Positions 3,133 through 51,353 of a stretch of DNA of 64,000 nt are shown one piece after another. The position numbers and the translations under genes are program-made. The stretch lies in assembly GCF_001677475.2 (NCBI RefSeq), contig NZ_CP015229.1; one strand, given 5' to 3'. Below the pieces are notes generated by a model. It saw only the letters and a program-made list of their open reading frames with translations, was not told the DNA's origin and ran no database searches. The DNA is from Escherichia coli (GTDB lineage: Bacteria > Pseudomonadota > Gammaproteobacteria > Enterobacterales > Enterobacteriaceae). Positions within the stretch are counted from its first letter, which is position 1. Each line of letters opens with the position of its first letter.

Positions 3133-3207
3133 ATGACGTTGTCTCCTTATTTGCAAGAGGTGGCGAAGCGCCGCACTTTTGCCATTATTTCTCACCCCAA
3201 TAATTAA
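3133..3207 (+). pseudogene. prfC: Displaced 5' end of prfC (first ~21 codons) left at attL, running into phage DNA to a stop
   Basis: ATG at 3133 encodes [22 protein letters not shown] then diverges (NN*) after the att core; the full prfC is at 54307. Confidence 0.8.
3184..3197. other. attL core (ATTATTTCTCACCC), left prophage junction
   Basis: Identical 14-bp sequence recurs at 54355..54368 inside the intact prfC 5' end; flanking ~20 bp match with one mismatch. Confidence 0.75.
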
Positions 3208-3427: not shown

Positions 3428-4663
3428 ATGGCGCTGTCTGATGCGTGGTTGCGTTCAGTCGTTGGAAAGGAACGTGATAAGGTTTTGGTTAAATCCGATC
3501 GTGATGGTCTGTCTGTCAGAGTATCACCGAAAGGTCGCGTAGTGTTCCAATATCGTTATCAATGGGCAGGGAAAGGTGAGCGCCTTGATATCGGAACTTA
3601 CCCGGCAACTGGATTAAAAGAGGCCAGAGAAGAAGTTATCCGTCTCCGTGGTGAACTCGAGTCAAACCGCAATCCACGATTAGTCAAGCAGGCTGAAAAA
3701 CGAAAAGCTACTGAAGCCATGACGGTAGAGTCTGTGATCCGTGCCTGGTATGAAGCATATTGTGTAAAAAATAAAAAAGGTTCTGAACAGATACTCCGCT
3801 CGTTTGAGCTGCACCTGTTCTCTAAAATCGGGAATATCCCTCACGATGCAGCTACATTGCATGATTGGTTAGAAGTCCTGGAGCCTCTTAGCACCAAGAC
3901 TCCAGCAATAGTAGACCGATTGCTAATTAACGCAAAGCAGGCTCATGTCTGGGCGTATAAGAGAAAGCTCATTGAAACTCGCCCACTGTCGGATATCACG
4001 GGTAAAGATATGGATATCCGTAAAGGTCAGAAAAAACGGTTTCTGACACATGATGAAATTAACATCCTTTATGCTGCGATCGATGGTTCTCGAATGGTTC
4101 CTAAATACCGAGCCTTCATTAAACTATTGCTGCATTTTGGTTGCCGTAGTTCAGAGCTAATTACTGCTAGGGTGGATGATTTTGATTTCATAAATAAGGT
4201 ATGGACTGTACCACCAGAACGACATAAGACTGGGGACATAACAGGCGAACCGCTAAAGCGGCCCATTATTGAACCGGTTGAAGAGCTTATAAAATACGTT
4301 ATCTCTATGAACAACGGTTCCGATATGCTTTTTACTAAGGAAGGAAGCAGGGAGCCAGTTGGTCGGACATCATTGCAGTCGCTGCCTTACAATTTAATGC
4401 AGTTCGCATGGCGACGTTTGGGGTATCAATTTCCTCATTGGTCTCTTCATGATTTGAGACGAACAGCACGAACAAACTTTTCTGATCTTACTGCTCCTCA
4501 TATTGCTGAAATAATGCTTGGTCATAAACTGCCAGGTGTATGGCAAGTTTATGATAAGAGCGATTATCTAGAAGAACAGCGTAAAGCTTACTGGGCATGG
4601 TGGGAGAGGGTTGAATCGATCGTTACTTGTACTGACTTAATCTCCAACGGACAGTTTGCGTAG
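3428..4663 (+). CDS. int: Tyrosine integrase, P4-type (N-terminal arm-binding domain plus catalytic domain)
   Basis: 411-aa ORF directly inside attL; C-terminal HDLRRTARTN and catalytic Y region typical of tyrosine recombinases; SD AAGGTGAG before ATG. Confidence 0.9.
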   Translation: MALSDAWLRSVVGKERDKVLVKSDRDGLSVRVSPKGRVVFQYRYQWAGKGERLDIGTYPATGLKEAREEVIRLRGELESNRNPRLVKQAEKRKATEAMTVESVIRAWYEAYCVKNKKGSEQILRSFELHLFSKIGNIPHDAATLHDWLEVLEPLSTKTPAIVDRLLINAKQAHVWAYKRKLIETRPLSDITGKDMDIRKGQKKRFLTHDEINILYAAIDGSRMVPKYRAFIKLLLHFGCRSSELITARVDDFDFINKVWTVPPERHKTGDITGEPLKRPIIEPVEELIKYVISMNNGSDMLFTKEGSREPVGRTSLQSLPYNLMQFAWRRLGYQFPHWSLHDLRRTARTNFSDLTAPHIAEIMLGHKLPGVWQVYDKSDYLEEQRKAYWAWWERVESIVTCTDLISNGQFA

Positions 4664-16213: not shown

Positions 16214-16966
16214 ATGAACCTTGAAGCTTTACCAAAATATTACTCCCCAAAATCGCCAAAATTGAGTGATGACGCACCGGCGACAGGCTCGGGTGGTTTA
16301 ACAATAACAGATGTGATGGCTGCGCAGGGGATGGTGCAGTCGAAAGCTCCGCTTGGTTTTGCCTTATTCCTGGCAAAAGTTGGTGTTCAGGATCCTCAGT
16401 TTGCGATTGAAGGTCTGCTCAATTACGCGATGGCAATGGATAATCCGACATTGAACAAATTGAGTGAAGAAATCCGGTTACAGATCATCCCTTACCTTGT
16501 GAATTTTGCCTTTGCTGATTATTCCAGGTCTGCGGCAAGTAAGGCTCGCTGTGAGTATTGTGCTGGTACTGGATTTCATAATGTATTGCGCGAAGTGGTG
16601 AAACACTCCAGAAGCGGGGAATCTGTTATCAAGGAAGAGTGGGTGAAGGAACTATGTCAGCATTGCCATGGTAAGGGAGAAGTCAGCACAGCGTGCAGAG
16701 GGTGTAAGGGGAAAGGTATTGTCCTGGATGAAAAAAGAACCCGGCTTCATAGCACGCCTGTTTATAAGGTTTGTGGGCGTTGCAATGGAAACCGGTTTAG
16801 TCGTTTACCAACGACACTGGCGCGGTGTCATGTCCAGAAGCTGGTACCAGACCTGACGGATTATCAGTGGTACAAAGGATATGCAGATGTCATTGATAAA
16901 CTGGTTACAAAGTGCTGGCAGGAAGAAGCATATGCTGAGGTGCAATTAAGAAAAGTGACGAGATAA
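16214..16966 (+). CDS. Late-gene antiterminator Q (zinc-binding)
   Basis: 250-aa ORF with multiple CxxC motifs (CEYCAGTG, CQHCHGKG, CRGCKGKG, CGRCNGN); upstream of the lysis cassette. Confidence 0.75.
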   Translation: MNLEALPKYYSPKSPKLSDDAPATGSGGLTITDVMAAQGMVQSKAPLGFALFLAKVGVQDPQFAIEGLLNYAMAMDNPTLNKLSEEIRLQIIPYLVNFAFADYSRSAASKARCEYCAGTGFHNVLREVVKHSRSGESVIKEEWVKELCQHCHGKGEVSTACRGCKGKGIVLDEKRTRLHSTPVYKVCGRCNGNRFSRLPTTLARCHVQKLVPDLTDYQWYKGYADVIDKLVTKCWQEEAYAEVQLRKVTR

Positions 16967-18792: not shown

Positions 18793-19081
18793 CTTTAAAT
18801 GGGGCAATGGTAATGTTGAATCTCATCCCGGGACTCATGTCTGTTAACTTATTATTTAGCTGGTGACTTGGTTATTTGCCTGATGTTTAAAATGTTTTCT
18901 TCCAGTACAATGTCCCTAAACACAATGAGTCTGCTTATTATATTATTAGCAGAGCTATTACGGCCAAAGTACAGCATAAGCTTTTAAAGCCAGTCAACCA
19001 GTCATCAAGACAGACGGGGTTATTCATAAAAACTCTCCATGTGTGATCCGATGGGGCCTGAAATTAAAGCTTTAATATAGC

Positions 19082-19294
19082 TCATGAAAGGTAAACATTG
19101 GCAGCTGAAGGGCCACGCAGAGCATTTATCCGGCAAAATTCCACGCGTAATCCGGTGGTAATTTCTTCTGCATCGCGGAGATTGAGCGCTGAAACATGAA
19201 GCTGGACATCGATACGACCATCGGATGGGGTGATAAGACCCTTGCCGCTTTTGCCGTCAAAGGTTTTGACAATTCCTGTCATTTTACGGGACAA
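19082..19294 (-). CDS. Cold-shock protein, CspF/CspH-like
   Basis: 70-aa [30 protein letters not shown]...; cold-shock domain; non-ATG start as in K-12 cspH/cspF. Confidence 0.85.
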
Positions 19295-19594
19295 AAAAAT
19301 TCCTTAATACTGATAACTTGGCGCACTATACACACGTTCCTGAAGAAAGCTATAGTTTTTTGATGGGGTTGAAGATGGCTGGATGTCTAAAATAAACATT
19401 GCTTCATATGTTCAACTATGCGTTAATGATTGCGTCGGTTTGAAGAACAGACGATATACGAAGTAGTTTACTAAAGCAGTTCTCATTTCAGGTGTTATTC
19501 ACTTATTCCTTCTTTGAGTCTCTCCAATTAAGTACGAAGTCGTTTCTGTTATACAAGCCATTTATGCCGAAAGGCTCAAGTTAAGGAATGTAGA

Positions 19595-19810
19595 ATGTCA
19601 AATAAAATGACTGGTTTAGTAAAATGGTTTAACGCTGATAAAGGTTTTGGCTTTATTTCTCCTGTTGATGGTAGTAAAGATGTGTTTGTGCATTTTTCTG
19701 CGATTCAGAATGATAATTTTCGAACCTTATTTGAAGGTCAAAAGGTTACCTTCTCTGTAGAGAGTGGTGCTAAAGGTCCTGCAGCAGCAAATGTCATAAT
19801 TACTGATTAA
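19595..19810 (+). CDS. cspB: Cold-shock protein CspB
   Basis: 71-aa [44 protein letters not shown]...; near-identical to recalled CspB; divergent from the cspF-like gene as in Qin. Confidence 0.9.
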
Positions 19811-20092
19811 AATTAATAGTTTGTCTGTATACGATAACGAAGAAGGCTGATGCCTGAGTGGAGATACAGACAGAGTGGTGAATATTGGATCTCTTTAATA
19901 AATAGTAAGGAGATCCAATACATGAAACAATGGCCAGCATATTTGGCAATAACTTAATCAGGAAAAGTATGCTAACCATTGTGGTGAAGTGCAGGTTTGC
20001 TGCATGAATAGTTTTACAGCAGAAGCTAACTGCTAGCATAGCAAAACAAAGTGCGTAAGTGGATGACTCCCACAAAAAGCACCACAATATTA

Positions 20093-20173: not shown

Positions 20174-20344
20174 TCAAGCTACAGCTTTAAGATTTGTCTG
20201 GAATACTTTGTTGCAATGAGGGCAGATCAAAAGAGCACCTTTTTGTACTCTTGAAAAACTGTGTTCTGACTCTTGGGTGCAGTTTGGGCAGGAACATTTA
20301 ACGAGATAATTACGGCGTGATTTTGAGTCTTTACGTTCTGACAT
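20174..20344 (-). CDS. Small zinc-ribbon protein (two CxxC pairs), function unknown
   Basis: MSERKDSKSRRNYLVKCSCPNCTQ...CPHCNKVF; start at internal ATG with SD AGGA; a TGTATA-N8-TATACA palindrome lies just upstream. Confidence 0.45.
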   Translation of the reverse strand: MSERKDSKSRRNYLVKCSCPNCTQESEHSFSRVQKGALLICPHCNKVFQTNLKAVA

Positions 20345-20562: not shown

Positions 20563-20778
20563 ATGAAATCAATGGATAAGTTAACAACAGGTATCGCCTA
20601 TGGCACATCGGCTGGTAATGCTGGTTTCTGGGCATTGCAGTTACTCGATAAAGTAACTCCGTCACAGTGGGCTGCAATCGGTGTGCTGGGTAGTCTGGTT
20701 TTTGGCCTGCTGACATATCTGACAAACCTTTATTTCAAGATTAAAGAAGACAGGCGTAAGGTTGCGAGAAGAGAGTAA
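20563..20778 (+). CDS. Holin (phage 21 S / EssD-EssQ class II type)
   Basis: 71-aa ORF with two TM segments and charged C-terminus ([13 protein letters not shown]). Confidence 0.85.
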
Positions 20779-20782
20779 TCCA

Positions 20783-21334
20783 ATGACTCAAGACTATGAA
20801 CTGGTTGTGAAAGGAGTTCGCAATTTTGAGAATAAAGTGGCGGTAACTGTAGCCTTACGGGACAAAAAACACTTTGACGGTGAAATTTTTGACCTGGACA
20901 TCTCGCTGGACCGTGTTGAAGGTGCCGCGCTGGAGTTTTATGAGGCAGCAGCCAGAAGGAGCATCAGACAGGTCTTCCTGGATGTTGCTGCCGGGTTATG
21001 TGAAGGGGATGAGCAGTCGCCGGAAAAGCGCCCCATAATTTTAGAGGCGCAGAATGTGTGGATAACCTACAAAGGAAAGCTACCGGGAAGAATTACTGGT
21101 TCTCTGAAGACGCCACCGACGGCATTGCGGTCAGAAAAAGATGATATTGAATCGCCCATTGAAAAACTGGAGGGCAGCGTCGCTGATCTGAATAAAAAAT
21201 TGTCGGTGCTGATTCCTTCTGAAGATGAAAAAAAACGCCGCGATGAGCAGTTTGCGGCGTTTTACGATTATTGCATTGAAGTTACTCGCAGGAATTTTGT
21301 GAAGATTTTTGAGGAGGGTAAATCTCTTCAGTAA
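20783..21334 (+). CDS. Hypothetical protein between holin and endolysin
   Basis: 184 aa from ATG at 20783 (MTQDYELVVKGV...); no recognised motif; possibly YdfR-position gene. Confidence 0.4.
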   Translation: MTQDYELVVKGVRNFENKVAVTVALRDKKHFDGEIFDLDISLDRVEGAALEFYEAAARRSIRQVFLDVAAGLCEGDEQSPEKRPIILEAQNVWITYKGKLPGRITGSLKTPPTALRSEKDDIESPIEKLEGSVADLNKKLSVLIPSEDEKKRRDEQFAAFYDYCIEVTRRNFVKIFEEGKSLQ

Positions 21335-21542
21335 GCTTATTGGCGGACGCTGCAATTAATTCAGGAAGGTCCGCAAGGTCATCTGTCAGTGGATATGATG
21401 AAAAATCGGCGGCAGTTCTGTTAAGAAGCGCTTTAACTAATTCCTTTTCCTTCTCCGGCAACAAGTTGATTAGAGCTACGACTGCTTGCCTGAGTGCGAT
21501 TAAATCAGCAAAAGTTTGTTTTGGTAGATTTGTGTAATCCAT
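21282..21542 (-). CDS. Hypothetical 86-aa protein, convergent and 3'-overlapping the preceding ORF
   Basis: Minus-strand ATG preceded by SD GAGGCG; non-repetitive protein-like composition. Confidence 0.35.
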   Translation of the reverse strand: MDYTNLPKQTFADLIALRQAVVALINLLPEKEKELVKALLNRTAADFSSYPLTDDLADLPELIAASANKLTEEIYPPQKSSQNSCE

Positions 21543-21655
21543 AGTCGCCTCGGTGTTTATCAGATTGACATCCTCCTCCCGCCAGTGCCCATCACTGGTG
21601 AGGTAAGATTTAACATATCCGGGGATTTGAAGCCGATAAATCCTGATAAATATCC

Positions 21656-22683
<1,028 letters not shown>

Positions 22684-23045
22684 ATTAATATTAAATCGGA
22701 TTATTTTTAGCGCTGAATGTGAAATTTAAATAAAAAGGACTCTTCCATGAGTCAAAATCCTTGAAATCTTAAGGGTAAGATAAAAGGTCATTAGACAGAA
22801 TGACACGTTTTATTAATAAATAAAGCTATTGTTTCATTCGTGTGTTTTTCTTTACAAAAGTAATCCTTGCTATGGTTGGTTAATCATGCGTTAATGGTGT
22901 TCTGGTTTGTTACAAAATTATCTGAAGCAGTCATTGTTATAATTTTATTATTTGTACCTCTTGAGATTTCCTTGTTGGTTTTTCTCTCTGATATTTTTTT
23001 CGGACCATTCTGCCCAAGGGCTAACTTCTTCAAAAGGTAATAATG

Positions 23046-23258
23046 ATGTCTAACAAAATGACTGGTTTAGTGAAATGGTTTAACCCTGAAAAAGGTTTTG
23101 GTTTCATCACGCCGAAAGATGGTAGCAAAGATGTGTTTGTCCATTTCTCAGCTATTCAGAGCAACGATTTCAAAACGTTAACTGAGAATCAGGAAGTCGA
23201 ATTTGGTATTGAGAACGGACCTAAAGGCCCCGCGGCTGTTCATGTTGTGGCACTTTGA
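23046..23258 (+). CDS. cspI: Cold-shock protein CspI
   Basis: [70 protein letters not shown] matches recalled CspI. Confidence 0.9.
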
Positions 23259-23461
23259 GGTAGAAAATATTACAAACCATATTCACTTTAGATGCCCGTG
23301 TTGCCATGGTTCTCAGTATAGAACATCATCTTTTGATGTTTCTGACAGGAATCCTTTCGGGGCAAAATGTATCTTTTGTAAATCAATGATGATTACATTT
23401 GATAATATTTCACAATACTTAAATGTTAGCCGTCTGTCGTTAGATTTAAGAAAGTGAAAAT

Positions 23462-24106: not shown

Positions 24107-24401
24107 TCTGTTTATAGTATTAGCATCAATTTCTTGTCAGATGCTATTCAACAATACAATTTACCCATAAACCTCGTTTTTACGGGGTTTTGTTATATTT
24201 AAACATTACCGAATAGATATAAATCTCGATAGTCGGTGGTATTGGTTGTGTGACAATACCTAGTCTTTTCGGTATGCCTGGAGAGAATACAAACGACAGA
24301 TTATGTAAGGGAAACGCGCTGAAACTTTCACACTTTCATGCTGAGTGATTTGACGTTATATTTTTAGCCGCAAGTGAAGAGCAAACGCATGGAGCGACAA
24401 A

Positions 24402-25330: not shown

Positions 25331-25480
25331 AATTGATAAGTAAGGTGAAAATAAAATAAATACAACAACCTTACGATGTGCTTTGATGTCATTAATGTGA
25401 AAAAATTAAATGATATCAAATGGTTTTGTAAAAACACATGGTTGTTGTATCGCTTTTTATCGATGACTTATGGAGAGGAG

Positions 25481-25987
25481 ATGGCCTTTTTATTGAATAA
25501 AAGTGATATGGCCTCCTCCATCGGTATCTCTGTTCAGGCATTTGATAAATGGGGCGTTCCTCCTGTCGAGCGTCGGGGGAGGGAAGTTTTTTATGACGTT
25601 AAAACTGTACTGGAGATAGATCGCGAGCGGCGACAACACAATCATAGAACACCTGATGACGGGGGCGATCTGGAGGAAAGGCTGCTTCGGGCCAGAGCTG
25701 AACTGACAGAAGAACAGGCCGTAGCTCAAAAACTTAAAAATCAGGTAACCGAAGGTAAGCTCATCGATTCAGACTTCTGCGTTTTCGCCCTCAGCAAGCT
25801 GGCGATGGCATTGTCCAGTACGCTTGATTCTATTCCGTTATCCATGCAGCGACAGTTCCCGGATTTAACGCCACGTCATCTTGACCATCTGAAAACCCTT
25901 ATTGCGAAGGGCGCAAATCAGTGTGCGCGGGCAGGGGATAAATTACCGGATTTGCTGGATGAATATATCAGAGCAACAACTGAATAA
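25481..25987 (+). CDS. nu1: Terminase small subunit Nu1
   Basis: Lambda Nu1-like; start at ATG with SD GGAGAGGAG in the track frame. Confidence 0.85.
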   Translation: MAFLLNKSDMASSIGISVQAFDKWGVPPVERRGREVFYDVKTVLEIDRERRQHNHRTPDDGGDLEERLLRARAELTEEQAVAQKLKNQVTEGKLIDSDFCVFALSKLAMALSSTLDSIPLSMQRQFPDLTPRHLDHLKTLIAKGANQCARAGDKLPDLLDEYIRATTE

Positions 25988-27887
25988 TCTGATGGCTGCC
26001 GTTTCGGTTGCGCTGCAGCCTCTGGTCAGGGTTGTACCGATGACGGCAGTTGAATGGGCTGACCAGTATTATTATCTGCCGAAAGAATCCTCATACGGTG
26101 ACGGCGAATGGAAAACGCTGCCGTTCCAGATCGCCATCATGAACAGTATGGGGAATGATCAGATCCGCACTGTTAATCTGATTAAATCTGCCCGTGTTGG
26201 CTATACAAAGATGTTGCTGGGGGTGGTCGGGTATTTTATTGAGCATAAATCCCGAAACAGTCTGCTTTTTCAGCCCACGGATTCTGCCGCTGAAGATTTT
26301 ATGAAGTCTCACGTGGAGACGACGATTAGGGACGTGCCATGCCTGAAAGACCTTTCCCCATGGCTGGGTCGTAAACATCGTGATAATACCCTCACGCTGA
26401 AACGCTTTTCATCGGGCGTCGGTTTCTGGTGCCTGGGCGGCGCTGCCGCCAAAAACTACCGTGAAAAATCCGTGGATGTGGTCTGCTATGACGAACTTTC
26501 CTCGTTCGAACCGGATGTTGAAAAAGAGGGTTCGCCAACCCTGCTGGGGGATAAACGTATTGAGGGCTCTGTATGGCCAAAATCCATTCGCGGCTCGACG
26601 CCTAAAATCAAAGGCTCCTGCCAGATCGAAAAAGCCGCTAACGAGTCGGCACATTTCATGCGTTTTTATGTGCCCTGTCCGCACTGTGGGGGGGAGCAGT
26701 ATCTGAAATTTGGCGATGATGCCTCGCCTTTCGGTCTTAAGTGGGAGAAGAATAAGCCAGAAAGTGTTTTCTACCTTTGTGAGCATCATGGCTGTGTGAT
26801 CCATCAGTCTGAGCTTGACCAGAGTAACGGGCGGTGGATCTGTGAAAACACGGGCATGTGGACCCGTGACGGCCTGATGTTTTTCAGCGCCCGGGGTGAT
26901 GAAATTCCGCCGCCGCGCTCCATCACTTTCCATATCTGGACGGCGTACAGTCCGTTCACCACCTGGGTACAGATTGTCTATGACTGGCTGGATGCACTGA
27001 AAGATCCCAACGGCCTGAAAACCTTTGTGAACACCACGCTGGGCGAGACCTACGAAGAGGCCGTGGGCGAAAAACTCGATCACCAGGTACTGATGGATAA
27101 GGTTGTGCGTTACACGGCGGCGGTGCCTGCCCGGGTGGTTTATCTGACGGCCGGCATTGACTCGCAGCGAAACCGTTTTGAGATGTATGTCTGGGGATGG
27201 GCTCCGGGAGAGGAAGCCTTTCTGGTGGATAAAATCATCATTATGGGGCGTCCCGATGAGGAAGAGACGCTGTTACGTGTGGATGCGGCGATCAACAAAA
27301 AATACCGCCATGCAGACGGAACCGAAATGACCATTTCCCGTGTCTGCTGGGACATCGGGGGGATCGATGGCGAAATCGTTTATCAGAGGTCAAAAAAACA
27401 CGGTGTTTTCCGGGTGCTGCCGGTAAAAGGCGCATCTGTCTATGGCAAGCCGGTGATCACCATGCCAAAAACCCGCAATCAGCGGGGCGTGTATCTGTGT
27501 GAAGTGGGGACGGACACCGCAAAAGAAATTCTCTATGCCCGTATGAGAGCCGATCCCACGCCTGCGGATGAAGCCACGTCGTATGCCATCCGTTTTCCTG
27601 ATGATCCGGAGATTTTTTCGCAGACAGAGGCGCAGCAACTGGTGGCGGAAGAGCTTGTGGAGAAGTGGGAAAAAGGAAAGATGCGTCTGCTGTGGGATAA
27701 CAAAAAGCGGCGTAACGAAGCGCTGGACTGCCTGGTGTATGCCTACGCGGCATTACGTGTGTCCGTGCAACGTTGGCAGCTTGATCTGGCTGTACTGGCA
27801 AAATCCCGGGAAGAAGAGACGACCCGGCCAACCCTTAAAGAACTGGCAGCGAAGCTGTCCGGAGGAGTGAATGGTTACAGTCGCTGA
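25959..27887 (+). CDS. A: Terminase large subunit A
   Basis: MNISEQQLNNL... with strong recalled similarity to lambda gpA (Walker A and endonuclease regions). Confidence 0.92.
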   Translation: MNISEQQLNNLMAAVSVALQPLVRVVPMTAVEWADQYYYLPKESSYGDGEWKTLPFQIAIMNSMGNDQIRTVNLIKSARVGYTKMLLGVVGYFIEHKSRNSLLFQPTDSAAEDFMKSHVETTIRDVPCLKDLSPWLGRKHRDNTLTLKRFSSGVGFWCLGGAAAKNYREKSVDVVCYDELSSFEPDVEKEGSPTLLGDKRIEGSVWPKSIRGSTPKIKGSCQIEKAANESAHFMRFYVPCPHCGGEQYLKFGDDASPFGLKWEKNKPESVFYLCEHHGCVIHQSELDQSNGRWICENTGMWTRDGLMFFSARGDEIPPPRSITFHIWTAYSPFTTWVQIVYDWLDALKDPNGLKTFVNTTLGETYEEAVGEKLDHQVLMDKVVRYTAAVPARVVYLTAGIDSQRNRFEMYVWGWAPGEEAFLVDKIIIMGRPDEEETLLRVDAAINKKYRHADGTEMTISRVCWDIGGIDGEIVYQRSKKHGVFRVLPVKGASVYGKPVITMPKTRNQRGVYLCEVGTDTAKEILYARMRADPTPADEATSYAIRFPDDPEIFSQTEAQQLVAEELVEKWEKGKMRLLWDNKKRRNEALDCLVYAYAALRVSVQRWQLDLAVLAKSREEETTRPTLKELAAKLSGGVNGYSR

Positions 27888-28077
27888 ACTGCAGGCGCTG
27901 CGTCAGGCGCGCCTTGATTTATTAACCGGTAAACGGGTGGTGTCTGTCCAGAAAGATGGTCGCAGAATTGAATATACGGCGGCTTCTCTGGATGAGCTTA
28001 ACCGGGCGATCAATGATGCGGAGTCGGTACTGGGGACAACCCGACGTCGCCGTCGTCCGCTGGGAGTGAGGTTATGA
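27871..28077 (+). CDS. W: Head-tail joining protein W
   Basis: 68-aa lambda W-like (TGKRVVSVQKDGRRIEYTA). Confidence 0.85.
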   Translation: MVTVAELQALRQARLDLLTGKRVVSVQKDGRRIEYTAASLDELNRAINDAESVLGTTRRRRRPLGVRL

Positions 28078-29666
28078 AACGAACGCCTGTCCTGATTGAT
28101 GTGAACGGTGTTCCGCTTCGTGAGAGTCTCAGCTACAACGGGGGCGGCGCAGGATTTGGCGGGCAAATGGCGGAGTGGTTGCCACCGGCGCAGAGTGCCG
28201 ATGCGGCCCTGCTGCCCGCGTTGCGTCTGGGGAATGCCCGGGCAGATGATCTGGTGCGCAATAACGGAATAGCGGCTAATGCGGTTGCCCTGCATAAGGA
28301 TCACATTGTCGGGCATATGTTTCTGATCAGCTACCGTCCGAACTGGCGCTGGCTGGGGATGCGGGAGACCGCAGCAAAAAGCTTTGTCGATGAGGTGGAG
28401 GCGTCCTGGTCGGAATACGCCGAAGGGATGTTTGGCGAGATCGACGTGGAAGGAAAACGCACGTTCACGGAATTTATCCGTGAAGGTGTGGGCGTTCATG
28501 CGTTTAACGGCGAAATCTTTGTGCAGCCGGTCTGGGATACGGAAACCACGCAGTTATTCCGTACGCGTTTTAAAGCTGTGAGTCCGAAACGGGTGGACAC
28601 GCCTGGACACGGTATGGGGAACCGTTTTCTGCGGGCCGGTGTGGAGGTCGATCGATATGGCCGTGCCGTCGCGTACCATATCTGTGAGGATGATTTTCCG
28701 TTCTCTGGTAGTGGACGATGGGAACGGATCCCGCGTGAACTTCCCACCGGGCGTCCGGCCATGCTGCATATTTTCGAGCCGGTGGAGGACGGGCAGACCC
28801 GTGGGGCTAATCAGTTTTACAGCGTCATGGAACGGCTGAAGATGCTCGATTCCCTGCAGGCAACACAGCTTCAGTCGGCCATAGTGAAGGCGATGTATGC
28901 AGCGACGATTGAAAGTGAACTTGATACCGAAAAGGCCTTTGAATATATCGCCGGCGCGCCACAGGAGCAGAAGGATAATCCGCTTATTAATATTCTGGAG
29001 AAGTTCTCCAGCTGGTATGACACGAATAACGTGACACTGGGCGGAGTCAAAATTCCGCACCTTTTCCCTGGTGATGATCTGAAACTACAGACTGCGCAGG
29101 ATTCAGACAATGGATTTTCTGCACTTGAACAGGCGCTGCTGCGGTATATCGCCGCCGGTCTTGGCGTTTCCTACGAACAGTTGTCCCGTGATTACTCGAA
29201 GGTCAGTTACTCAAGTGCCCGCGCCTCCGCCAATGAGTCGTGGCGCTATTTTATGGGGCGGCGAAAATTTATTGCGGCCCGGCTGGCCACGCAGATGTTT
29301 TCCTGCTGGCTGGAAGAGGCACTTCTTCGGGGGATTATTCGTCCGCCACGGGCACGTTTTGATTTTTATCAGGCGCGATCAGCCTGGTCACGGGCAGAGT
29401 GGATTGGTGCCGGAAGAATGGCCATTGACGGGCTCAAGGAAGTCCAGGAATCAGTGATGCGCATTGAGGCCGGACTGAGCACGTATGAGAAAGAGCTGGC
29501 GCTAATGGGCGAGGATTATCAGGACATTTTCCGCCAGCAGGTCAGGGAATCTGCAGAGCGGCAAAAAGCCGGACTCTCACGTCCGGTGTGGATATCGCAG
29601 GCGTATCAGCAGCAGATAGCGGAGAGTCGCAGGCCGGAAGAGGAGACAACACCACGTGAGACGTAA
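28074..29666 (+). CDS. B: Portal protein B
   Basis: 530-aa lambda gpB-like; packaging gene order. Confidence 0.9.
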   Translation: MKRTPVLIDVNGVPLRESLSYNGGGAGFGGQMAEWLPPAQSADAALLPALRLGNARADDLVRNNGIAANAVALHKDHIVGHMFLISYRPNWRWLGMRETAAKSFVDEVEASWSEYAEGMFGEIDVEGKRTFTEFIREGVGVHAFNGEIFVQPVWDTETTQLFRTRFKAVSPKRVDTPGHGMGNRFLRAGVEVDRYGRAVAYHICEDDFPFSGSGRWERIPRELPTGRPAMLHIFEPVEDGQTRGANQFYSVMERLKMLDSLQATQLQSAIVKAMYAATIESELDTEKAFEYIAGAPQEQKDNPLINILEKFSSWYDTNNVTLGGVKIPHLFPGDDLKLQTAQDSDNGFSALEQALLRYIAAGLGVSYEQLSRDYSKVSYSSARASANESWRYFMGRRKFIAARLATQMFSCWLEEALLRGIIRPPRARFDFYQARSAWSRAEWIGAGRMAIDGLKEVQESVMRIEAGLSTYEKELALMGEDYQDIFRQQVRESAERQKAGLSRPVWISQAYQQQIAESRRPEEETTPRET

Positions 29667-31161
29667 TCTTTCACACATTATTGCCGCAGCATTCAATGAA
29701 CCGCTGCTTCTGGAGCCCGCCTATGCGCGGGTTTTCTTTTGCGCGCTCGGGCGCGAGATGGGGGCAGCAAGTCTTTCGGTACCACAACAACAGGTACAGC
29801 TTGATGCTCCCGGAATGCTGGCTGAAACGGACGAGTATATGGCCGGAGGTAAACGACCGGCCCGTGTTTACCGGGTGGTGAACGGTATTGCTGTACTGCC
29901 GGTGACCGGCACGCTGGTGCACCGGCTGGGTGGTATGCGGCCATTTTCCGGAATGACAGGCTATGACGGCATTGTCGCCTGTCTTCAGCAGGCAATGGCG
30001 GATAGCCAGGTGCGGGGCGTACTGCTGGACATTGACAGTCCGGGCGGGCAGGCCGCCGGCGCGTTTGACTGCGCTGACATGATTTACCGCCTCCGTCAGC
30101 AGAAGCCGGTCTGGGCACTGTGCAATGACACGGCCTGTTCTGCAGCCATGCTGCTGGCGTCGGCCTGCTCCCGACGGCTGGTTACCCAGACATCCCGTAT
30201 CGGCTCCATTGGCGTGATGATGAGCCATGTCAGCTATGCCGGTCATCTGGCGCAGGCCGGTGTGGATATCACGCTGATTTACTCAGGGGCGCACAAGGTG
30301 GATGGCAATCAGTTTGAAGCGTTGCCGGCAGAGGTTCGCCAGGACATGCAGCAGCGGATTGATGCGGCGCGCCGGATGTTTGCCGAAAAAGTGGCGATGT
30401 ATACCGGTCTGTCTGTTGATGCCATCACGGGAACAGAGGCTGCCGTTTTTGAAGGTCAGTCCGGCATTGAGGCCGGGCTGGCGGATGAATTAATCAATGC
30501 GTCGGATGCCATCAGTGTGATGGCCACGGCGCTGAACAGTAATGTCAGAGGAGGCACTATGCCGCAATTAACTGCAACGGAAGCCGCCGCGCAGGAGAAC
30601 CAGCGAGTGATGGGGAGCCTGACATGCCAGGAAGCGAAAGGACGTGAACAGCTTGCCACGATGCTGGCAGGACAACAGGGCATGAGCGTTGAACAGGCCC
30701 GGGCGATTCTGGCCGCGGCGGCACCGCAGCAGCCGGTGGCATCCACGCAGAGTGAAGCCGATCGCATTATGGCGTGTGAAGAAGCGAACGGTCGTGAACA
30801 ACTGGCGGCAACGCTGGCGGCGATGCCGGAGATGACGGTGGAAAAAGCCCGCCCGATCCTGGCTGCTTCACCGCAGGCGGATGCCGGACCATCACTCCGT
30901 GATCAGATCATGGCACTGGATGAGGCAAAAGGGGCTGAGGCGCAGGCTGAACAGCTGGCTGCCTGCCCGGGAATGACAGTGGAGAGCGCCCGGGCTGTGC
31001 TGGCTGCGGGATCAGGTAAGGCAGAACCGGTCTCTGCATCCACAACCGCCATGTTTGAACATTTCATGGCGAACCATTCACCGGCAGCGGTACAGGGTGG
31101 CGTGGCACAGACGTCAGCAGACGGTGATGCGGACGTGAAAATGCTCATGGCCATGCCATGA
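29656..31161 (+). CDS. C: Head maturation protease C (S49 family) with nested scaffold Nu3-like C-terminal region
   Basis: 501-aa ORF; C-terminal three tandem ~35-aa repeats. Confidence 0.85.
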   Translation: MRRNLSHIIAAAFNEPLLLEPAYARVFFCALGREMGAASLSVPQQQVQLDAPGMLAETDEYMAGGKRPARVYRVVNGIAVLPVTGTLVHRLGGMRPFSGMTGYDGIVACLQQAMADSQVRGVLLDIDSPGGQAAGAFDCADMIYRLRQQKPVWALCNDTACSAAMLLASACSRRLVTQTSRIGSIGVMMSHVSYAGHLAQAGVDITLIYSGAHKVDGNQFEALPAEVRQDMQQRIDAARRMFAEKVAMYTGLSVDAITGTEAAVFEGQSGIEAGLADELINASDAISVMATALNSNVRGGTMPQLTATEAAAQENQRVMGSLTCQEAKGREQLATMLAGQQGMSVEQARAILAAAAPQQPVASTQSEADRIMACEEANGREQLAATLAAMPEMTVEKARPILAASPQADAGPSLRDQIMALDEAKGAEAQAEQLAACPGMTVESARAVLAAGSGKAEPVSASTTAMFEHFMANHSPAAVQGGVAQTSADGDADVKMLMAMP

Positions 31162-31197
31162 AGTCAGTGCTGACCATCAATAGGAGGTTTTTACAAT

Positions 31198-31545
31198 ATG
31201 GTGACGAAAACCATCACTGAACAGCGTGCGGAAGTACGTATTTTTGCCGGTAATGATCCGGCTCATACCGCCACAGGCAGCAGCGGGATTTCTCAGGCAA
31301 CACCGGCACTGACGCCCCTGATGCTGGATGAGTCTACCGGGAAACTGGTGGTCTGGGACGGACAGAAAGCCGGTAGTGCGGCTGGCATACTGGTACTGCC
31401 GCTTGAAGGCACAGAGACGGTGCTGACGTATTACAAGTCGGGAACCTTTGCGACGGAGGCAATCCACTGGCCTGAAAGTGTGGATGAACACAAAAAGGCC
31501 AACGCCTTTGCCGGCAGTGCCCTGAGTCACGCGGCGCTGCCGTAA
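31198..31545 (+). CDS. D: Head decoration protein D
   Basis: Lambda gpD-like (NDPAHTATG...PLMLD...KSGTFA). Confidence 0.88.
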   Translation: MVTKTITEQRAEVRIFAGNDPAHTATGSSGISQATPALTPLMLDESTGKLVVWDGQKAGSAAGILVLPLEGTETVLTYYKSGTFATEAIHWPESVDEHKKANAFAGSALSHAALP

Positions 31546-31602
31546 CACGTTATCAGGCCACCGCGGTGGCCTGACTGATTTCTGAATGAAAGGAACTGAT
31601 TT

Positions 31603-32631
31603 ATGGGATTGTTTACGACCCGCCAGTTGCTCGGTTATACCGAACAAAAAGTGAAATATCGTGCGCTGTTTCTGGAGCTGTTTTTCCGCCGTACGGTGAA
31701 TTTCCATACCGAAGAGGTGATGCTGGACAAAATTACCGGAAAAACGCCGGTGGCGGCCTATGTCTCCCCGGTTGTTGAAGGAAAAGTGCTGCGTCATCGT
31801 GGTGGTGAAACCCGCGTGTTGCGTCCGGGCTACGTCAAGCCGAAACACGAATTTAATTACCAGCAGGCGGTTGAGCGCCTTCCTGGTGAAGATCCATCTC
31901 AACTGAACGATCCGGCTTACCGCCGTCTGCGTATCATTACCGATAACCTCAAACAGGAAGAGCACGCGATTGTCCAGGTGGAAGAAATGCAGGCGGTAAA
32001 TGCTGTGTTGTATGGCAAATACACCATGGAAGGAGACCAGTTCGAGAAAATTGAGGTCGATTTTGGCAGGTCGACGAAGAATAACATCACACAGGGTAGC
32101 GGTAAGGAATGGTCAAAACAGGATCGTGACACGTTCGATCCTACACATGATATTGATCTTTACTGCGACCAGGCCAGCGGTCTTGTGAATATTGCCATCA
32201 TGGACGGTACCGTTTGGCGTCTGCTGAATGGTTTTAAGCTGTTTCGCGAAAAACTGGATACCCGTCGCGGTTCAAATTCACAACTCGAAACGGCAGTGAA
32301 AGATCTGGGCGCAGTGGTGTCCTTCAAGGGGTATTACGGCGATCTGGCTATTGTTGTGGCGAAAACGTCTTATATAGCAGAAGACGGTATCGAAAAACGT
32401 TATCTTCCAGATGGCATGCTGGTCCTGGGGAATACTGCTGCAGATGGGATCCGTTGTTACGGAGCCATTCAGGATGCGCAGGCGTTGTCCGAAGGTGTGG
32501 TGGCTTCTTCCCGTTATCCGAAACACTGGCTGACGGTGGGGGATCCTGCCCGTGAATTTACCATGACGCAGTCCGCACCGCTGATGGTGTTGCCGGACCC
32601 GGATGAGTTTGTGGTGGTACAGGTGAAATAA
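31603..32631 (+). CDS. E: Major capsid protein E
   Basis: 342-aa lambda gpE-like (PGYVKPKHE, DPAREFTM, LPDPDEFV). Confidence 0.92.
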   Translation: MGLFTTRQLLGYTEQKVKYRALFLELFFRRTVNFHTEEVMLDKITGKTPVAAYVSPVVEGKVLRHRGGETRVLRPGYVKPKHEFNYQQAVERLPGEDPSQLNDPAYRRLRIITDNLKQEEHAIVQVEEMQAVNAVLYGKYTMEGDQFEKIEVDFGRSTKNNITQGSGKEWSKQDRDTFDPTHDIDLYCDQASGLVNIAIMDGTVWRLLNGFKLFREKLDTRRGSNSQLETAVKDLGAVVSFKGYYGDLAIVVAKTSYIAEDGIEKRYLPDGMLVLGNTAADGIRCYGAIQDAQALSEGVVASSRYPKHWLTVGDPAREFTMTQSAPLMVLPDPDEFVVVQVK

Positions 32632-32640
32632 TCCGTGAGC

Positions 32641-32668
32641 GGGGGCGAAATGCCCCCGTGTCTTTTTT
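32641..32668 (+). terminator. Terminator-like hairpin between E and FI (possible attenuator)
   Basis: GGGGGC-GAAAT-GCCCCC followed by GTGTCTTTTTTC. Confidence 0.35.
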
Positions 32669-32682
32669 CACAGGGGGCTGAT

Positions 32683-33057
32683 ATGGCAACGAAAGAGCAA
32701 AATCTGAAACGGCTTGATGAACTGGCCCTGATTCTGGGGCGTGAGCCGGATATATCCGGGAGTGCCGCAGAGATAGCGCAGCGGGTGGCGGAATGGGAAG
32801 AGGAAATGCAGTCATCCGGCGATGATGTACAGGTTATGAATATGGATATCCGGGAGCAGGAAACCGCGGCTCATGATGTTCGTGAGGAAACATCCGGCGC
32901 GTTAACGCGCATCAGAGTTCTGACCTGCCTCCATCTCTGTGGCATTGATGGTGAAACGGGGGAATCCGTTGAGCTTGCGGATGTTGGTCGGGTGATTCTG
33001 ATTATGTCCTCAGATGCAAAAACACACGTTGATGGCGGAATGGCTGTTTATGCGTGA
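32683..33057 (+). CDS. FI: DNA packaging protein FI
   Basis: Start at MATKEQN with SD GGGGG; position between E and FII. Confidence 0.7.
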   Translation: MATKEQNLKRLDELALILGREPDISGSAAEIAQRVAEWEEEMQSSGDDVQVMNMDIREQETAAHDVREETSGALTRIRVLTCLHLCGIDGETGESVELADVGRVILIMSSDAKTHVDGGMAVYA

Positions 33058-33403
33058 TTTTCAGAATGCCTTTGATGCCGCCCTTGCCGGGGTGGACAGT
33101 ACGATTGTTGAAGTGATGGGCATCAGTGCGCAGTTCACCTCCGGTGCACAGCGTGGCGGCGAGGTTCATGGCGTTTTTGACGATCCGGAGTCGCTGGGTT
33201 TTGCCAGTAGTGGGATCCGTATTGAAGGAAGCAACCCGTCATTATTTGTGCTTACGGATACGGTTTGTGCTGTACGGCGTGGTGACACGCTGACCATTAA
33301 CGGCGAGATATTCTGGGTGGATCGTGTTTCTCCGGATGACGGAGGGAGTTGTTATCTCTGGCTCAACCGGGGGCAACCACCTGCCGTTAACCGTCGCCGC
33401 TGA
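33050..33403 (+). CDS. FII: Head-tail connector FII
   Basis: 117 aa from MRDFQNAF; C-terminus VDRVSPDDGGSC.LWL.RG.PPAVNRRR as in lambda FII. Confidence 0.85.
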   Translation: MRDFQNAFDAALAGVDSTIVEVMGISAQFTSGAQRGGEVHGVFDDPESLGFASSGIRIEGSNPSLFVLTDTVCAVRRGDTLTINGEIFWVDRVSPDDGGSCYLWLNRGQPPAVNRRR

Positions 33404-33414
33404 AAGGGGGATGT

Positions 33415-33993
33415 ATGGCCATAAAAGGTCTTGAGCAGGCCGTTGAAAACCTCAGCCGTATCAGCAAAACGGCGGTGCCTGGTGCCGCCGCAATGGCCAT
33501 TAACCGCGTTGCTTCATCCGCGATATCGCAGTCGGCGTCACAGGTTGCCCGTGAGACAAAGGTACGCCGGAAACTGGTAAAGGAAAGGGCCAGGCTGAAA
33601 AGGGCCACGGTCAAAAATCCGCAGGCCAGAATCAAGGTTAACCGGGGGGATTTGCCCGTAATCAAGCTGGGTAACGCGCGGATTGTCCTGCCCCGACGCA
33701 GGCGTCGTAAAAAGGGGCAGCGTTCAGCCCTGAAAGGTGGCGGCAGCGTGCTTGTGGTGGGAAACCGTCGTATTCCCGGCGCGTTTATTCAGCAACTGAA
33801 AAATGGCCGCTGGCATGTTATGCAGCGTGTGGCCGGGAAAAACCGTTACCCCATTGATGTAGTGAAAATCCCGATGGCGGTGCCGCTGACCACGGCGTTT
33901 AAACAAAATATTGAGCGGATACGGCGTGAACGTCTTCCGAAAGAGCTGGGCTATGCGCTGCAGCATCAACTGAGGATGGTAATAAAGCGATGA
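33415..33993 (+). CDS. Z: Tail completion protein Z
   Basis: 192-aa lambda gpZ-like. Confidence 0.85.
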   Translation: MAIKGLEQAVENLSRISKTAVPGAAAMAINRVASSAISQSASQVARETKVRRKLVKERARLKRATVKNPQARIKVNRGDLPVIKLGNARIVLPRRRRRKKGQRSALKGGGSVLVVGNRRIPGAFIQQLKNGRWHVMQRVAGKNRYPIDVVKIPMAVPLTTAFKQNIERIRRERLPKELGYALQHQLRMVIKR

Positions 33994-34385
33994 AACATAC
34001 TGAACTCCGTGCAGCCGTACTGGATGCACTGGAGAAGCATGACACCGGGGCGACGTTTTTTGATGGTCGCCCCGCTGTTTTTGATGAGGCGGATTTTCCG
34101 GCAGTTGCCGTTTATCTCACCGGCGCTGAATACACGGGCGAAGAGCTGGACAGCGATACCTGGCAGGCGGAGCTGCATATCGAAGTTTTCCTGCCTGCTC
34201 AGGTGCCGGATTCAGAGCTGGATGCGTGGATGGAGTCCCGGATTTATCCGGTGATGAGTGATATCCCGGCACTGTCAGATTTGATCACCAGTATGGTGGC
34301 CAGCGGCTATGACTACCGGCGCGACGATGATGTGGGCCTGTGGAGTTCAGCCGATCTGACTTATGTCATTACCTATGAAATGTGA
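33990..34385 (+). CDS. U: Tail terminator protein U
   Basis: 131 aa; matches recalled lambda gpU almost residue for residue. Confidence 0.95.
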
Positions 34386-34392
34386 GGACGCT

Positions 34393-35133
34393 ATGCCTGT
34401 ACCAAATCCTACAATGCCGGTGAAAGGTGCCGGGACCACCCTGTGGGTTTATAAGGGGAGCGGTGACCCTTATGCGAATCCGCTTTCAGACGTTGACTGG
34501 TCGCGTCTGGCAAAAGTTAAAGACCTGACGCCCGGCGAACTGACCGCTGAGTCCTATGACGACAGCTATCTCGATGATGAAGATGCAGACTGGACTGCGA
34601 CCGGGCAGGGGCAGAAATCCGCCGGAGATACCAGCTTCACGCTGGCGTGGATGCCCGGAGAGCAGGGGCAGCAGGCGCTGCTGGCGTGGTTTAATGAAGG
34701 TGATACCCGTGCCTATAAAATCCGCTTCCCGAACGGCACGGTCGATGTGTTCCGTGGCTGGGTGAGCAGTATCGGTAAGGCGGTGACGGCGAAGGAAGTG
34801 ATCCCCCGTACGGTGAAGGTCACCAATGTGGGCCGTCCGTCAATGGCAGAAGATCGCAGTACGGTAACAGCGGCAACCGGTATGACTGTGACGCCTGCCA
34901 GCTCCTCGGTGGTGAAAGGGCAGAGCACCACGCTGACCGTGGCATTCCAGCCGGAGGGCGCAACTGACAAGAGCTTCCGTGCGGTGTCAGCGGATAAAAC
35001 AAAAGCCACCGTGTCGGTCAGTGGTATGACCATCACCGTGAAAGGCGTTGCTGCAGGCAAGGTCAACATTCCGGTTGTATCCGGTAATGGTGAACTTGCT
35101 GCGGTTGCAGAAATCACTGTCACCGACAGTTAA
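34393..35133 (+). CDS. V: Major tail protein V
   Basis: [31 protein letters not shown]...; near-identical to recalled lambda gpV including the C-terminal Ig-like domain. Confidence 0.95.
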
Positions 35134-35148
35134 TCCGGAGAGTCAGCG

Positions 35149-35571
35149 ATGTTCCTGAAAACCGAATCATTTGAACATAACGGCGTGACCGTCACGCTTT
35201 CTGAACTGTCAGCCCTGCAGCGTATTGAGCATCTCGCCCTGATGAAACGGCAGGCAGAACAGGCGGAGTCAGACAGCAACCGGCAGGTTACTGTGGAAGA
35301 CGTCATCAGAACCGGTGCTTGTGTGGTGGCGATGTCCCTGTGGCATAACCATCCGAAGAAGACGCAGATGCCGTCCATGAATGAAGCCGTTAAACAGATT
35401 GAGCAGGAAGTGCTTACCACCTGGCCCACAGAGGCAATTTCTCATGCTGAAAACGTGGTGTACCGGCTGTCCGGAATGTATGAGTTTGTGGTGAATGATG
35501 CCCCTGACCAGGCAGAGGACGCCGGGCCTGCAGAGCCTGTTTCTGCGGGAAAGTGTTCGACGGTGAGCTGA
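35149..35571 (+). CDS. G: Tail assembly chaperone G
   Basis: 140-aa lambda gpG-like; ends just past the slippery site. Confidence 0.9.
   Translation: MFLKTESFEHNGVTVTLSELSALQRIEHLALMKRQAEQAESDSNRQVTVEDVIRTGACVVAMSLWHNHPKKTQMPSMNEAVKQIEQEVLTTWPTEAISHAENVVYRLSGMYEFVVNDAPDQAEDAGPAEPVSAGKCSTVS
35547..35553 (+). other. Programmed -1 ribosomal frameshift slippery heptamer GGGAAAG (G to G-T fusion)
   Basis: G GGA AAG in the G frame, followed by the T ORF in the -1 frame. Confidence 0.85.
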
Positions 35572-35987
35572 GTTTTGCCCTGAAACTGGCGCGCGAGATG
35601 GGGCGACCCGACTGGCGTGCCATGCTTGCCGGGATGTCATCCACGGAGTATGCCGACTGGCACCGCTTTTACAGTACCCATTATTTTCATGATGTTCTGC
35701 TGGATATGCACTTTTCCGGGCTGACGTACACCGTACTCAGCCTGTTTTTCAGCGATCCGGATATGCATCCGCTGGATTTCAGTCTGCTGAACCGGCGCGA
35801 GGCTGACGAAGAGCCTGAAGATGATGTGCTGATGCAGAAAGCGGCAGGGCTTGCCGGAGGTGTCCGCTTTGGCCCGGACGGGAATGAAGTTATCCCTACT
35901 TCCCCGGATGTGGCGGACATGACGGAGGATGACGTAATGCTGATGACAGTATCAGAAGGGATCGCAGGAGGAGTCCGGTATGGCTGA
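35553..35987 (+). CDS. T: Tail assembly protein T (expressed as G-T frameshift fusion)
   Basis: -1 frame ORF downstream of the slippery site; lambda gpT-like. Confidence 0.85.
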   Translation: MFDGELSFALKLAREMGRPDWRAMLAGMSSTEYADWHRFYSTHYFHDVLLDMHFSGLTYTVLSLFFSDPDMHPLDFSLLNRREADEEPEDDVLMQKAAGLAGGVRFGPDGNEVIPTSPDVADMTEDDVMLMTVSEGIAGGVRYG

Positions 35988-38541: not shown

Positions 38542-38867
38542 AGACCTTCCGCTGGAAAGTGAAACCCGGTATGGATGTGGCTTCGGTCCCTTCTGTAAGA
38601 AAGGTGCGCTTTGGTGATGGCTATTCCCAGCGAGCGCCTGCCGGGCTGAATGCCAACCTGAAAACGTACAGCGTGACGCTTTCTGTCCCCCGTGAGGAGG
38701 CCACGGTACTGGAGTCGTTTCTGGAAGAGCACGGGGGCTGGAAATCCTTTCTGTGGACGCCGCCTTATGAGTGGCGGCAGATAAAGGTGACCTGCGCAAA
38801 ATGGTCGTCGCGGGTCAGTATGCTGCGTGTTGAGTTCAGCGCAGAGTTTGAACAGGTGGTGAACTGA
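38538..38867 (+). CDS. M: Minor tail protein M
   Basis: 109-aa lambda gpM-like. Confidence 0.92.
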   Translation: MKTFRWKVKPGMDVASVPSVRKVRFGDGYSQRAPAGLNANLKTYSVTLSVPREEATVLESFLEEHGGWKSFLWTPPYEWRQIKVTCAKWSSRVSMLRVEFSAEFEQVVN

Positions 38868-39565: not shown

Positions 39566-39570
39566 ATCCC

Positions 39571-40883: not shown

Positions 40884-40943
40884 TGCAAAATGTTTTATGT
40901 GAAACCGCCTGCGGGCGGTTTTGTCATTTATGGAGCGTGAGGA

Positions 40944-42370: not shown

Positions 42371-42463
42371 TATGAGACGACAATAACTCAGTCCGCCTGG
42401 CGCCGATTATTCTGGCCGGTTTTGTAACCTGAGTGTCATTTACATGATCCAACAGGAAATGGC

Positions 42464-44715: not shown

Positions 44716-44781
44716 TGTCGCCCTGAAGGGTGCGGCCAGTATAGTTGGCGCGAGTCGGCAAAACTAGTTGACGTCTAATAA

Positions 44782-46773: not shown

Positions 46774-46794
46774 AATTGTTATAACCCATATAAG

Positions 46795-46820
46795 GGCACC
46801 AGAAATGGTGCCTTTTTTAT
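46795..46820 (+). terminator. Rho-independent terminator after J
   Basis: GGCACC-AGAAAT-GGTGCC followed by TTTTTTATT. Confidence 0.7.
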
Positions 46821-46842
46821 TGCAGAAAAGCGAGAGGTAATT

Positions 46843-47442: not shown

Positions 47443-47467
47443 TTAGCCAGGTAACACAGTGTTATGA

Positions 47468-47496: not shown

Positions 47497-47506
47497 TGGG
47501 GGGAAT

Positions 47507-51345: not shown

Positions 51346-51353
51346 AGGTGAAC

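Follow-up and report, generated by a model that had tools for sequence, protein, structure and literature searches.

The cold-shock genes of the prophage described here very probably belong to the standard late-region accessory set of a Qin-type lambdoid phage, carried on a lambda-like prophage that is nearly complete; the csp genes would serve the lysogen as extra CspA/CspG. The window, i.e., the whole stretch of 64,000 nucleotides that was analyzed, is a piece of Escherichia coli chromosome, and its prophage is an ordinary E. coli lambda-like prophage with Qin-type late cargo. For K-12, these genes are textbook material, as are the order in which they occur and their location on a prophage, and GenBank phage records already contain the full arrangement. 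The prophage shows the ancestor type of the defective Qin prophage, and its “cold” cargo exceeds the four genes cspF, cspB, cspI and ydfK, as it also includes the string cspI-ynfQ-ynfR-ynfN-gnsB and the pair ynfT-ydfK.

The lambdoid prophage is ~51 kb long and is inserted at the 5′ end of prfC. The leuQPV tRNA genes, rsmC, holD, rimI and yjjG are found on its left flank, and prfC, osmY, yjjI and deoCAB on its right flank (PGAP annotation). Strain M114, which is 100% identical to the window across positions 18500–24500, was used as the annotation reference, with its PGAP coordinates converted. A 42-nt imperfect direct repeat is located at the two limits of the prophage (3156–3197 and 54327–54368). 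The left attachment site attL (3133..3197, + strand; a partial ORF in the M114 PGAP annotation) is the displaced native 5′ end of prfC, and attR (54307..54368, + strand; PGAP start of prfC) is the substitute 5′ end supplied by the phage. Both sites close with the same 14-bp core, ATTATTTCTCACCC, and the attR copy preserves the prfC reading frame. PhiR63_1, an isolated phage, has termini that align with positions 3196 (left) and 54370 (right) of the window, which confirms the prophage limits. The integration point is within the first 22 codons of prfC, and the phage brings a diverged N-terminus along with upstream DNA, thus release factor 3 of the lysogen is a chimera made from upstream sequence carried by the phage. 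A tyrosine integrase gene (3428..4663, + strand) was identified by its PGAP name in M114, where the locus is 99.7% identical, and an adjoining 377-aa ORF (4822–5955) belongs to PHROG 7779 but to none of the NCBIfam families. At the other end, a DinI-like gene (53839..54087, − strand; Pfam DinI, E = 1.2×10−19) is the final prophage gene ahead of attR.

Whole-prophage alignment against Qin and lambda had been proposed as the check on the original prediction, and blastn comparison gave collinear matches to both, with 91–97% identity to the Qin late blocks and 98.4% identity to the lambda tail region. The late genes resemble those of Qin, a cryptic prophage of K-12 (b1544–b1579), at 84–100% protein identity and 91–97% DNA identity. 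In tblastn, 23 of the 23 Qin proteins tested (YdfU through YnfT) match the window in collinear order, and the shared order is ydfU/ydfT, cspF, cspB, ynfU, essQ, ydfR, rrrQ, rzpQ/rzoQ, cspI, ynfQ, ynfR, ynfN, gnsB, ynfO, stfQ, tfaQ, pinQ, ydfK and ynfT. The matching DNA consists of blocks from ynfS to essQ (18603–20988, 96% identity), from rrrQ to gnsB (21646–24243, 91%), in cos-proximal DNA (24891–25293, 95%), in stfQ (49494–50447, 91–97%) and from tfaQ to ynfT (51354–53855, 93%).

Within this order, the late antiterminator gene Q (ydfT/quuQ-like; 16214..16966, + strand; PGAP “antitermination protein”) has 92.8% amino acid identity to K-12 YdfT. A ynfS-like small ORF (18938..19027, − strand; 96.6% identity to K-12 YnfS and a PGAP CDS in M114) is downstream of cspF, and ynfU, encoding a small zinc-ribbon protein (20174..20344, − strand; Pfam YnfU, E = 2.5×10−31; 98.2% to K-12 YnfU), precedes the lysis cassette (20563..22683, + strand), which consists of the essQ holin, an extended ydfR-like ORF, the rrrQ lysozyme and the rzpQ/rzoQ spanins (84–96% amino acid identity to Qin; PGAP). 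Beyond cspI, four small genes on the + strand have Qin identities within 91–95%: a ynfQ/ymcF-like gene (23269–23457; Pfam YmcF-like, E = 6.3×10−33) and, as annotated by PGAP, ynfR (23460–23525), ynfN (23530–23760) and gnsB (23933–24106). A terminator-like hairpin followed by a T run (24169..24190, + strand), found by pattern scan after gnsB, is likely the end of a cspI-gnsB unit. Toward the right end, a pinQ-like DNA invertase gene (52027..52617, − strand) is 98.5% identical to K-12 PinQ. YnfR is cold-induced in K-12 (PMC6001520).

The prophage differs from Qin in several respects. Qin is located at ydfJ, whereas the window prophage is at prfC. The early region of Qin carries dicA/dicB/dicF, relBE and hokD, to which the early region of the window prophage is unrelated. 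Qin has lost its virion module completely: nohA, a stump of the terminase gene Nu1, abuts stfQ there, whereas the window prophage has ~24 kb of virion genes at this place. Judging from this junction, Qin appears to be a phage of this type from which the virion genes have been deleted. In the window, moreover, Q and cspF are 1.55 kb farther apart and the 3′ part of ydfR is altered.

Both of the latter differences have features of their own. The ydfR-like ORF is lengthened to 190 aa (20762–21646), and Qin has nothing that corresponds to 20988–21646; the opposite strand contains an 86-aa ORF (21282–21542), and ydfR is flagged as partial by PGAP in M114. The 1.55-kb segment is absent from Qin and from phage 2H10 and present in M114 and PhiR63_1, and it encodes a small tail-anchored membrane ORF (18127–18312/18411; PHROG 11629). 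It is flanked by a 143-bp diverged direct repeat (71% identity; 16909–17050 and 18603–18743) that corresponds to the 3′ end of Q and the DNA downstream, thus a duplication may have affected the DNA immediately after Q, in which the late promoter is expected.

The original prediction placed three cold-shock genes and a YdfK/YnaE-like gene on one prophage. The ORF lists and PGAP agree with this placement, since M114 PGAP names cspF, cspB, cspI and ydfK at converted coordinates equal to those of the window ORFs. The cspF gene (19082..19294, − strand) encodes 70 aa (Pfam CSD, PF00313, E = 2.8×10−21; NCBIfam CspF), and cspB (19595..19810, + strand) encodes 71 aa (Pfam CSD, E = 8.4×10−32). These two genes are divergent, as had been predicted, with a 300-bp spacer between them. 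The cspI gene (23046..23258, + strand; start at 23043/23046 in the ORF list; Pfam CSD, E = 1.6×10−31) does follow the lysis genes, beginning 363 bp past the end of rzpQ (22683), and ydfK is indeed close to the right end, with ~1.1 kb separating it from attR. When the K-12 Qin proteins were used as tblastn queries, full-length matches were obtained with 100% identity for CspI, 97.2% for CspB, 97.1% for CspF and 98.7% for YdfK, a near-identity to known genes that chance could not produce. A single cold-shock domain spans each of the three Csp products (PF00313 model positions 1–65 of 66).

The three products are not equivalent. CspB and CspI are predicted CspA-type RNA chaperones: the cspB product matches the NCBIfam CspA subfamily with 141.6 bits (cut-off 130), and the motifs RNP1 (KGFGFI) and RNP2 (VFVHF) are preserved in both proteins in the alignment. 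CspF lacks the RNP motifs and has SGKGLI and VQLHV instead, the same as K-12 CspF and CspH, with the substitutions W11T, F18K, F20L, F31Q and F34V relative to CspA. The label “cspF/H-like” of the original prediction can be kept in its first half only, as the cspF product scores 157.1 bits against NCBIfam CspF (NF012007; cut-off 111) and 126.4 bits against the CspH equivalog (NF012008), short of the cut-off of 141. We rejected the idea that the Csp proteins take part in defence or anti-defence, as the weak matches to the retron Se72 effector and to TOTE S1/CSD models are far under the curated cut-offs.

The leaders of the csp genes were searched with the cspA thermoregulator covariance model (Rfam RF01766; gathering score 78, model positions 1–428). 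Full-model matches were obtained for the mRNAs of cspB (19434..19873, + strand; 159.4 bits, E = 1.2×10−41), with a 161-nt leader at 19434–19594, and of cspI (22889..23304, + strand; 111.1 bits, E = 1.4×10−27), with a leader of ~157 nt. These scores reflect diverged leaders of the cspA thermosensor type, and both are predicted thermosensors. The starts of the matches place the transcript starts ~161 and ~157 nt 5′ of the cspB and cspI start codons, respectively. The DNA upstream of cspF and ydfK gave no RF01766 match, and permissive Rfam scans of the same DNA gave best E values of 0.02–0.7 to unrelated families. Only 139 nt lie between cspF and the cspB transcript start. The lack of a long leader and of the aromatic nucleic-acid-binding residues makes it unlikely that CspF works as a cold-induced RNA chaperone. 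Thus, in the “Qin-like cold-responsive set” that had been predicted, the identity and collinearity with Qin hold, but the membership of cspF is doubtful, as it has neither the thermoregulator leader nor the aromatic RNA-binding residues.

The likely promoter of cspB is TTGCTT (19399–19404) with TTAATG (19423–19428). The pattern TTGCT(T/A) ... ATGCGTTAATG is common to the DNA just upstream of the cspB and cspI transcript starts and, read from the sequence, would be the promoter of both genes. A simple sigma-70 scan around cspF/cspB, cspI and ydfK found promoter-like sites no more commonly than in shuffled sequence, therefore the promoter and terminator scans of these regions were not counted as evidence and the cspB and cspI promoters rest on reading by eye.

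In K-12, cspA, cspB and cspI are induced by cold, the cspA-type leader folds in a temperature-dependent manner, and CspB and CspI act as cold-induced RNA chaperones adding to CspA and CspG. By analogy with these near-identical genes, we infer the same cold induction and chaperone activity for cspB and cspI of the window. Under such circumstances, cspB and cspI-ynfQ-ynfR-ynfN-gnsB would be self-contained insertions in the late operon (“morons”), one between Q and the holin gene and the other after the spanins, and cspB and cspI would each have their own promoter and a ~160-nt leader behaving like the cspA mRNA thermosensor. At 37 °C the leader would be poorly stable and poorly translated, and at low temperature it would be refolded, stabilized and translated. 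The resulting OB-fold proteins of ~70 aa would bind single-stranded RNA or DNA through KGFGFI and VFVHF and melt RNA structure stabilized by cold, so that CspB and CspI would be redundant extra copies of CspA/CspG for the lysogen, which is the benefit we propose. In long-term stationary phase of K-12, the expression of cspB, cspF, cspI, ynfN, ydfK and ynaE rises together (PMC7406224).

Alternatively, the csp genes could serve the phage, with Q-dependent antitermination allowing read-through from the late promoter and thereby supplying CspB and CspI in lytic growth, where they would aid late transcription or translation as RNA chaperones or antiterminators, especially in the cold. CspA-family proteins are known as transcription antiterminators, and the NCBIfam names reflect such activity. 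Both genes are on the strand of the late operon, between Q (16214–16966) and the holin gene for cspB and right after the spanins for cspI, and due to this orientation they would also be transcribed in lytic growth. The cassette has moreover been retained in the plaque-forming phages 2H10 and PhiR63_1 (propagated on ECOR13). On the other hand, the full-length cspA-type leader is retained by cspB and by cspI, cspF is oriented against the late operon, no csp gene is present in lambda, and the csp genes of K-12 are expressed from the defective Qin without induction (PMC7406224). We consider a phage-side role unlikely, and service to the lysogen remains the preferred reading.

The fourth gene, ydfK (52997..53230, − strand), encodes a protein of 77 aa in the YdfK/YnaE family (98.7% to K-12 YdfK; PHROG 2718, E = 2.8×10−47), predicted to be helical, and a longer ORF extends to 53263 (88 aa). 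A small ORF of the YnaM/YnfT family, ynfT (53302..53415, − strand; NCBIfam NF041477, 59.8 bits with a cut-off of 35; 97.3% to K-12 YnfT), is upstream of it. Relatives of YdfK bear the precomputed label PF27475 “YnaE,” and searches with the YdfK sequence gave no match in the PDB or in our copies of NCBIfam and Pfam, for the latter with E values of up to 10 allowed. In phmmer, 27 matches at E ≤ 1×10−3 were found among 1.84 billion cluster representatives. Four long proteins among the matches (551–4429 aa, with several short matching stretches) were set aside as spurious; the 551-aa protein, the only one of the four that was read, is an obvious tandem-repeat protein.

Two AlphaFold2 (AF2) models of YdfK were obtained, one from the single sequence (pLDDT 77.7) and one from six sequences (pLDDT 75.9). 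YmgB/AriR (PDB 2OXL) is the one outstanding structural match of both models (Foldseek probability 1.00, TM-score 0.81), and the predicted models have the three-helix fold of YmgB. At the sequence level the link is weak: the two proteins are 15% identical, BLASTP is not significant (E = 0.28), and YdfK has no Pfam match to the YmgB/AriR family (PF10798) at E ≤ 10. Comparison of small YdfK and YmgB alignments by hhalign gave P = 5.9×10−4 and a probability of 29% over 28 columns, including LG.AV...G..(I/V)N. YmgB is a small connector that targets the Rcs phosphorelay as well as SpoT, which it contacts through residue R74 (PMC10704370). In our alignment, R74 is paired with Q in YdfK.

A 42%-identical YnaE/YdfK-family gene was observed in a nonphage chromosomal cluster of another enterobacterium (GCA_022358715.1, JAESVW010000026.1; 3038–5231 of the fetched locus). 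There it and a cspA-type gene that has an RF01766 leader (170 bits) are transcribed divergently, and the cspA-type gene is in turn next to an lpxP equivalog (596 bits). LpxP is a cold-induced lipid A acyltransferase, and the cluster of lpxP, the cspA-type gene and ynaE looks like a small cold-acclimation island. The YmgB-like fold and the cold-type neighbors of the YnaE-family gene together favor, with low to moderate confidence, YdfK as a cold-linked small protein-binding regulator. On this basis ydfK, preceded by ynfT and next to the right attachment site, would encode a small helical protein that is most likely a protein-binding regulator of the YmgB/AriR kind. A more specific proposal is that YdfK/YnaE is distantly related to the YmgB/AriR-YcgZ-YmgA connectors and binds an Rcs- or SpoT-type signalling protein of the host in the cold, so that Qin-type phages would deliver RNA chaperones together with a small regulator rewiring host stress signalling; we regard this as speculative and rather improbable as a whole. 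Our literature search found no paper connecting YdfK/YnaE with the YmgB family. The resemblance of the predicted fold to YmgB appears to be the only mildly new item of this analysis, and it provides a testable idea for a cold-induced protein lacking an assigned function.

The predicted lambda-like structural module is present on the same prophage, in lambda gene order. It extends from terminase to tail-fibre assembly (25376..51929, + strand; blastn against NC_001416 and PGAP names in M114), with the order Nu1-A-W-B-C-D-E-FI-FII-Z-U-V-G-T-H-M-L-K-I-J-lom-stf-tfa between gnsB/ynfO and stf. The tail half is 98.4% identical to lambda DNA from FII to J (33275–42370) and 95.2% identical at 44781–46327, and the head genes for terminase, portal, protease and capsid are about 66–68% identical. 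The head genes (25376–33275, terminase to FI), which include a 501-aa S49 protease, are an allele unlike those of PhiR63_1, 2H10 and lambda, and look like a module swap at the cos and FII boundaries. A 300-aa ORF with a macro domain of the ADP-ribose-binding type (50443–51345; PHROG 2613), a possible counter-defence moron, is located between the side tail fibre and tail fibre assembly genes, and a full-length Rfam IS009 match (220.9 bits; 51697–51895) is inside the tail fibre assembly gene.

The tail-tip gene J is interrupted by a 2410-bp element of the IS21 family (42371..44780, + strand; alignment break at 42370/44781; NCBIfam IS21 transposase 226 bits, IstB 267 bits). The element encodes IstA (42464–43963, 499 aa) and IstB (43960–44715, 251 aa), ends in inverted repeats that are imperfect, shows a duplication of ACCGGG, and is absent from J in M114, lambda, 2H10 and PhiR63_1. 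Because J is split, infectious tails are probably not made, and the prophage in the window is likely to be defective; the att sites and the integrase gene are present, but the interruption of J means that the prophage does not qualify as intact and inducible. The early region contains yfdR/Q/P, an XRE-type repressor gene, ymfL, Rha, yfdN, a methyltransferase gene, RusA and KilA-N (PGAP). An Rfam isrK match (67.9 bits) beside a C4 antisense RNA (83.6 bits) was observed within the Rha-family ORF (10984–11172), which suggests an antisense RNA immunity element of the P1/P7 or Gifsy type in the early region.

The csp and ydfK genes might be inert passengers with no selected function. This could be argued from the decay of the window prophage itself by the IS21 insertion in J, from the absence of aromatic nucleic-acid-binding residues in CspF, and from the redundancy of single csp genes in K-12. 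Such passengers would not be expected to show what we observed, i.e., intact ORFs that are 97–100% identical across strains and free phages and a conserved leader structure, nor the finding that K-12 mutants of cspB and cspI are outcompeted in long-term stationary phase (PMC7406224). The passenger reading is accordingly very unlikely.

The same cargo is found on isolated phages. The temperate isolates 2H10 (NC_049950, genus Glaedevirus) and PhiR63_1 (PV340573) have three CSD genes, a ydfK/ynaE gene, pin, dinI, an integrase gene and virion genes in lambda order. Both are 99.2–99.9% identical to the window across 18900–23500, and in PhiR63_1 all early and late regulatory DNA is 99.5–99.9% identical. 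In contrast to the window and M114, which share the diverged head allele, 2H10 and PhiR63_1 have heads of the lambda allele; they also have no IS in J and differ from the window in the side tail fibre regions, and 2H10 lacks the 1.55-kb segment after Q. The RefSeq record of 2H10 lists three “cold shock protein” genes, GnsB, a DNA invertase and DinI, with the ydfK homolog as a hypothetical protein, and the PhiR63_1 record has a “YnaE family” gene alongside three genes of the CSP family. Free phages that combine csp/ydfK with lambda-like virion genes had thus been recorded before. Among the phage collection, PhiR63_1 and 2H10 are 99.2–99.9% identical over the cspF-to-gnsB segment, and HannyBb, PhiR42_1 and Tritos are 81–86% covered.

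That the prophage is a new or unusual mosaic, with Qin cargo joined to a foreign lambda structural module, is a reading that might draw on its non-Qin-like early region (yfdR/Q/P, ymfL, Rha and yfdN vs. dicA/dicB/relBE) and on a head allele different from lambda, 2H10 and PhiR63_1, but it is largely refuted and extremely improbable, given that Qin retains nohA, cos-proximal DNA (95% to 24891–25293), stfQ and tfaQ in order, which means that the virion module belongs between nohA and stfQ, that 2H10, PhiR63_1 and M114 have the same join from gnsB/ynfO to the virion genes, and that module exchange is the norm in lambdoid phages.

The cargo is widespread in E. coli. Of 5426 complete genomes, 1376 contain the 6-kb cspF-to-gnsB segment (18500–24500) over 80% or more of its length, and about 1600 records have the cspF-cspB pair at ≥90% identity (729-bp search). 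Most of the remaining genomes match cspF-cspB only through the paralogous cspH-cspG pair. The cspF/cspB pair is thus accessory, being found in about 30% of complete genomes, whereas cspH/cspG is core. The chromosomal cluster cspH-cspG-ymcF-ymcE-gnsA has the same composition, with a divergent pair of CspF/H-type and CspA-type genes followed by small genes of the ymcF and gns types, and is ~77% identical in DNA to 85% of 19082–19810, intergenic DNA included. This core locus is found in nearly all genomes, and its two halves are adjacent there, whereas on the phage they are separated by the lysis genes.
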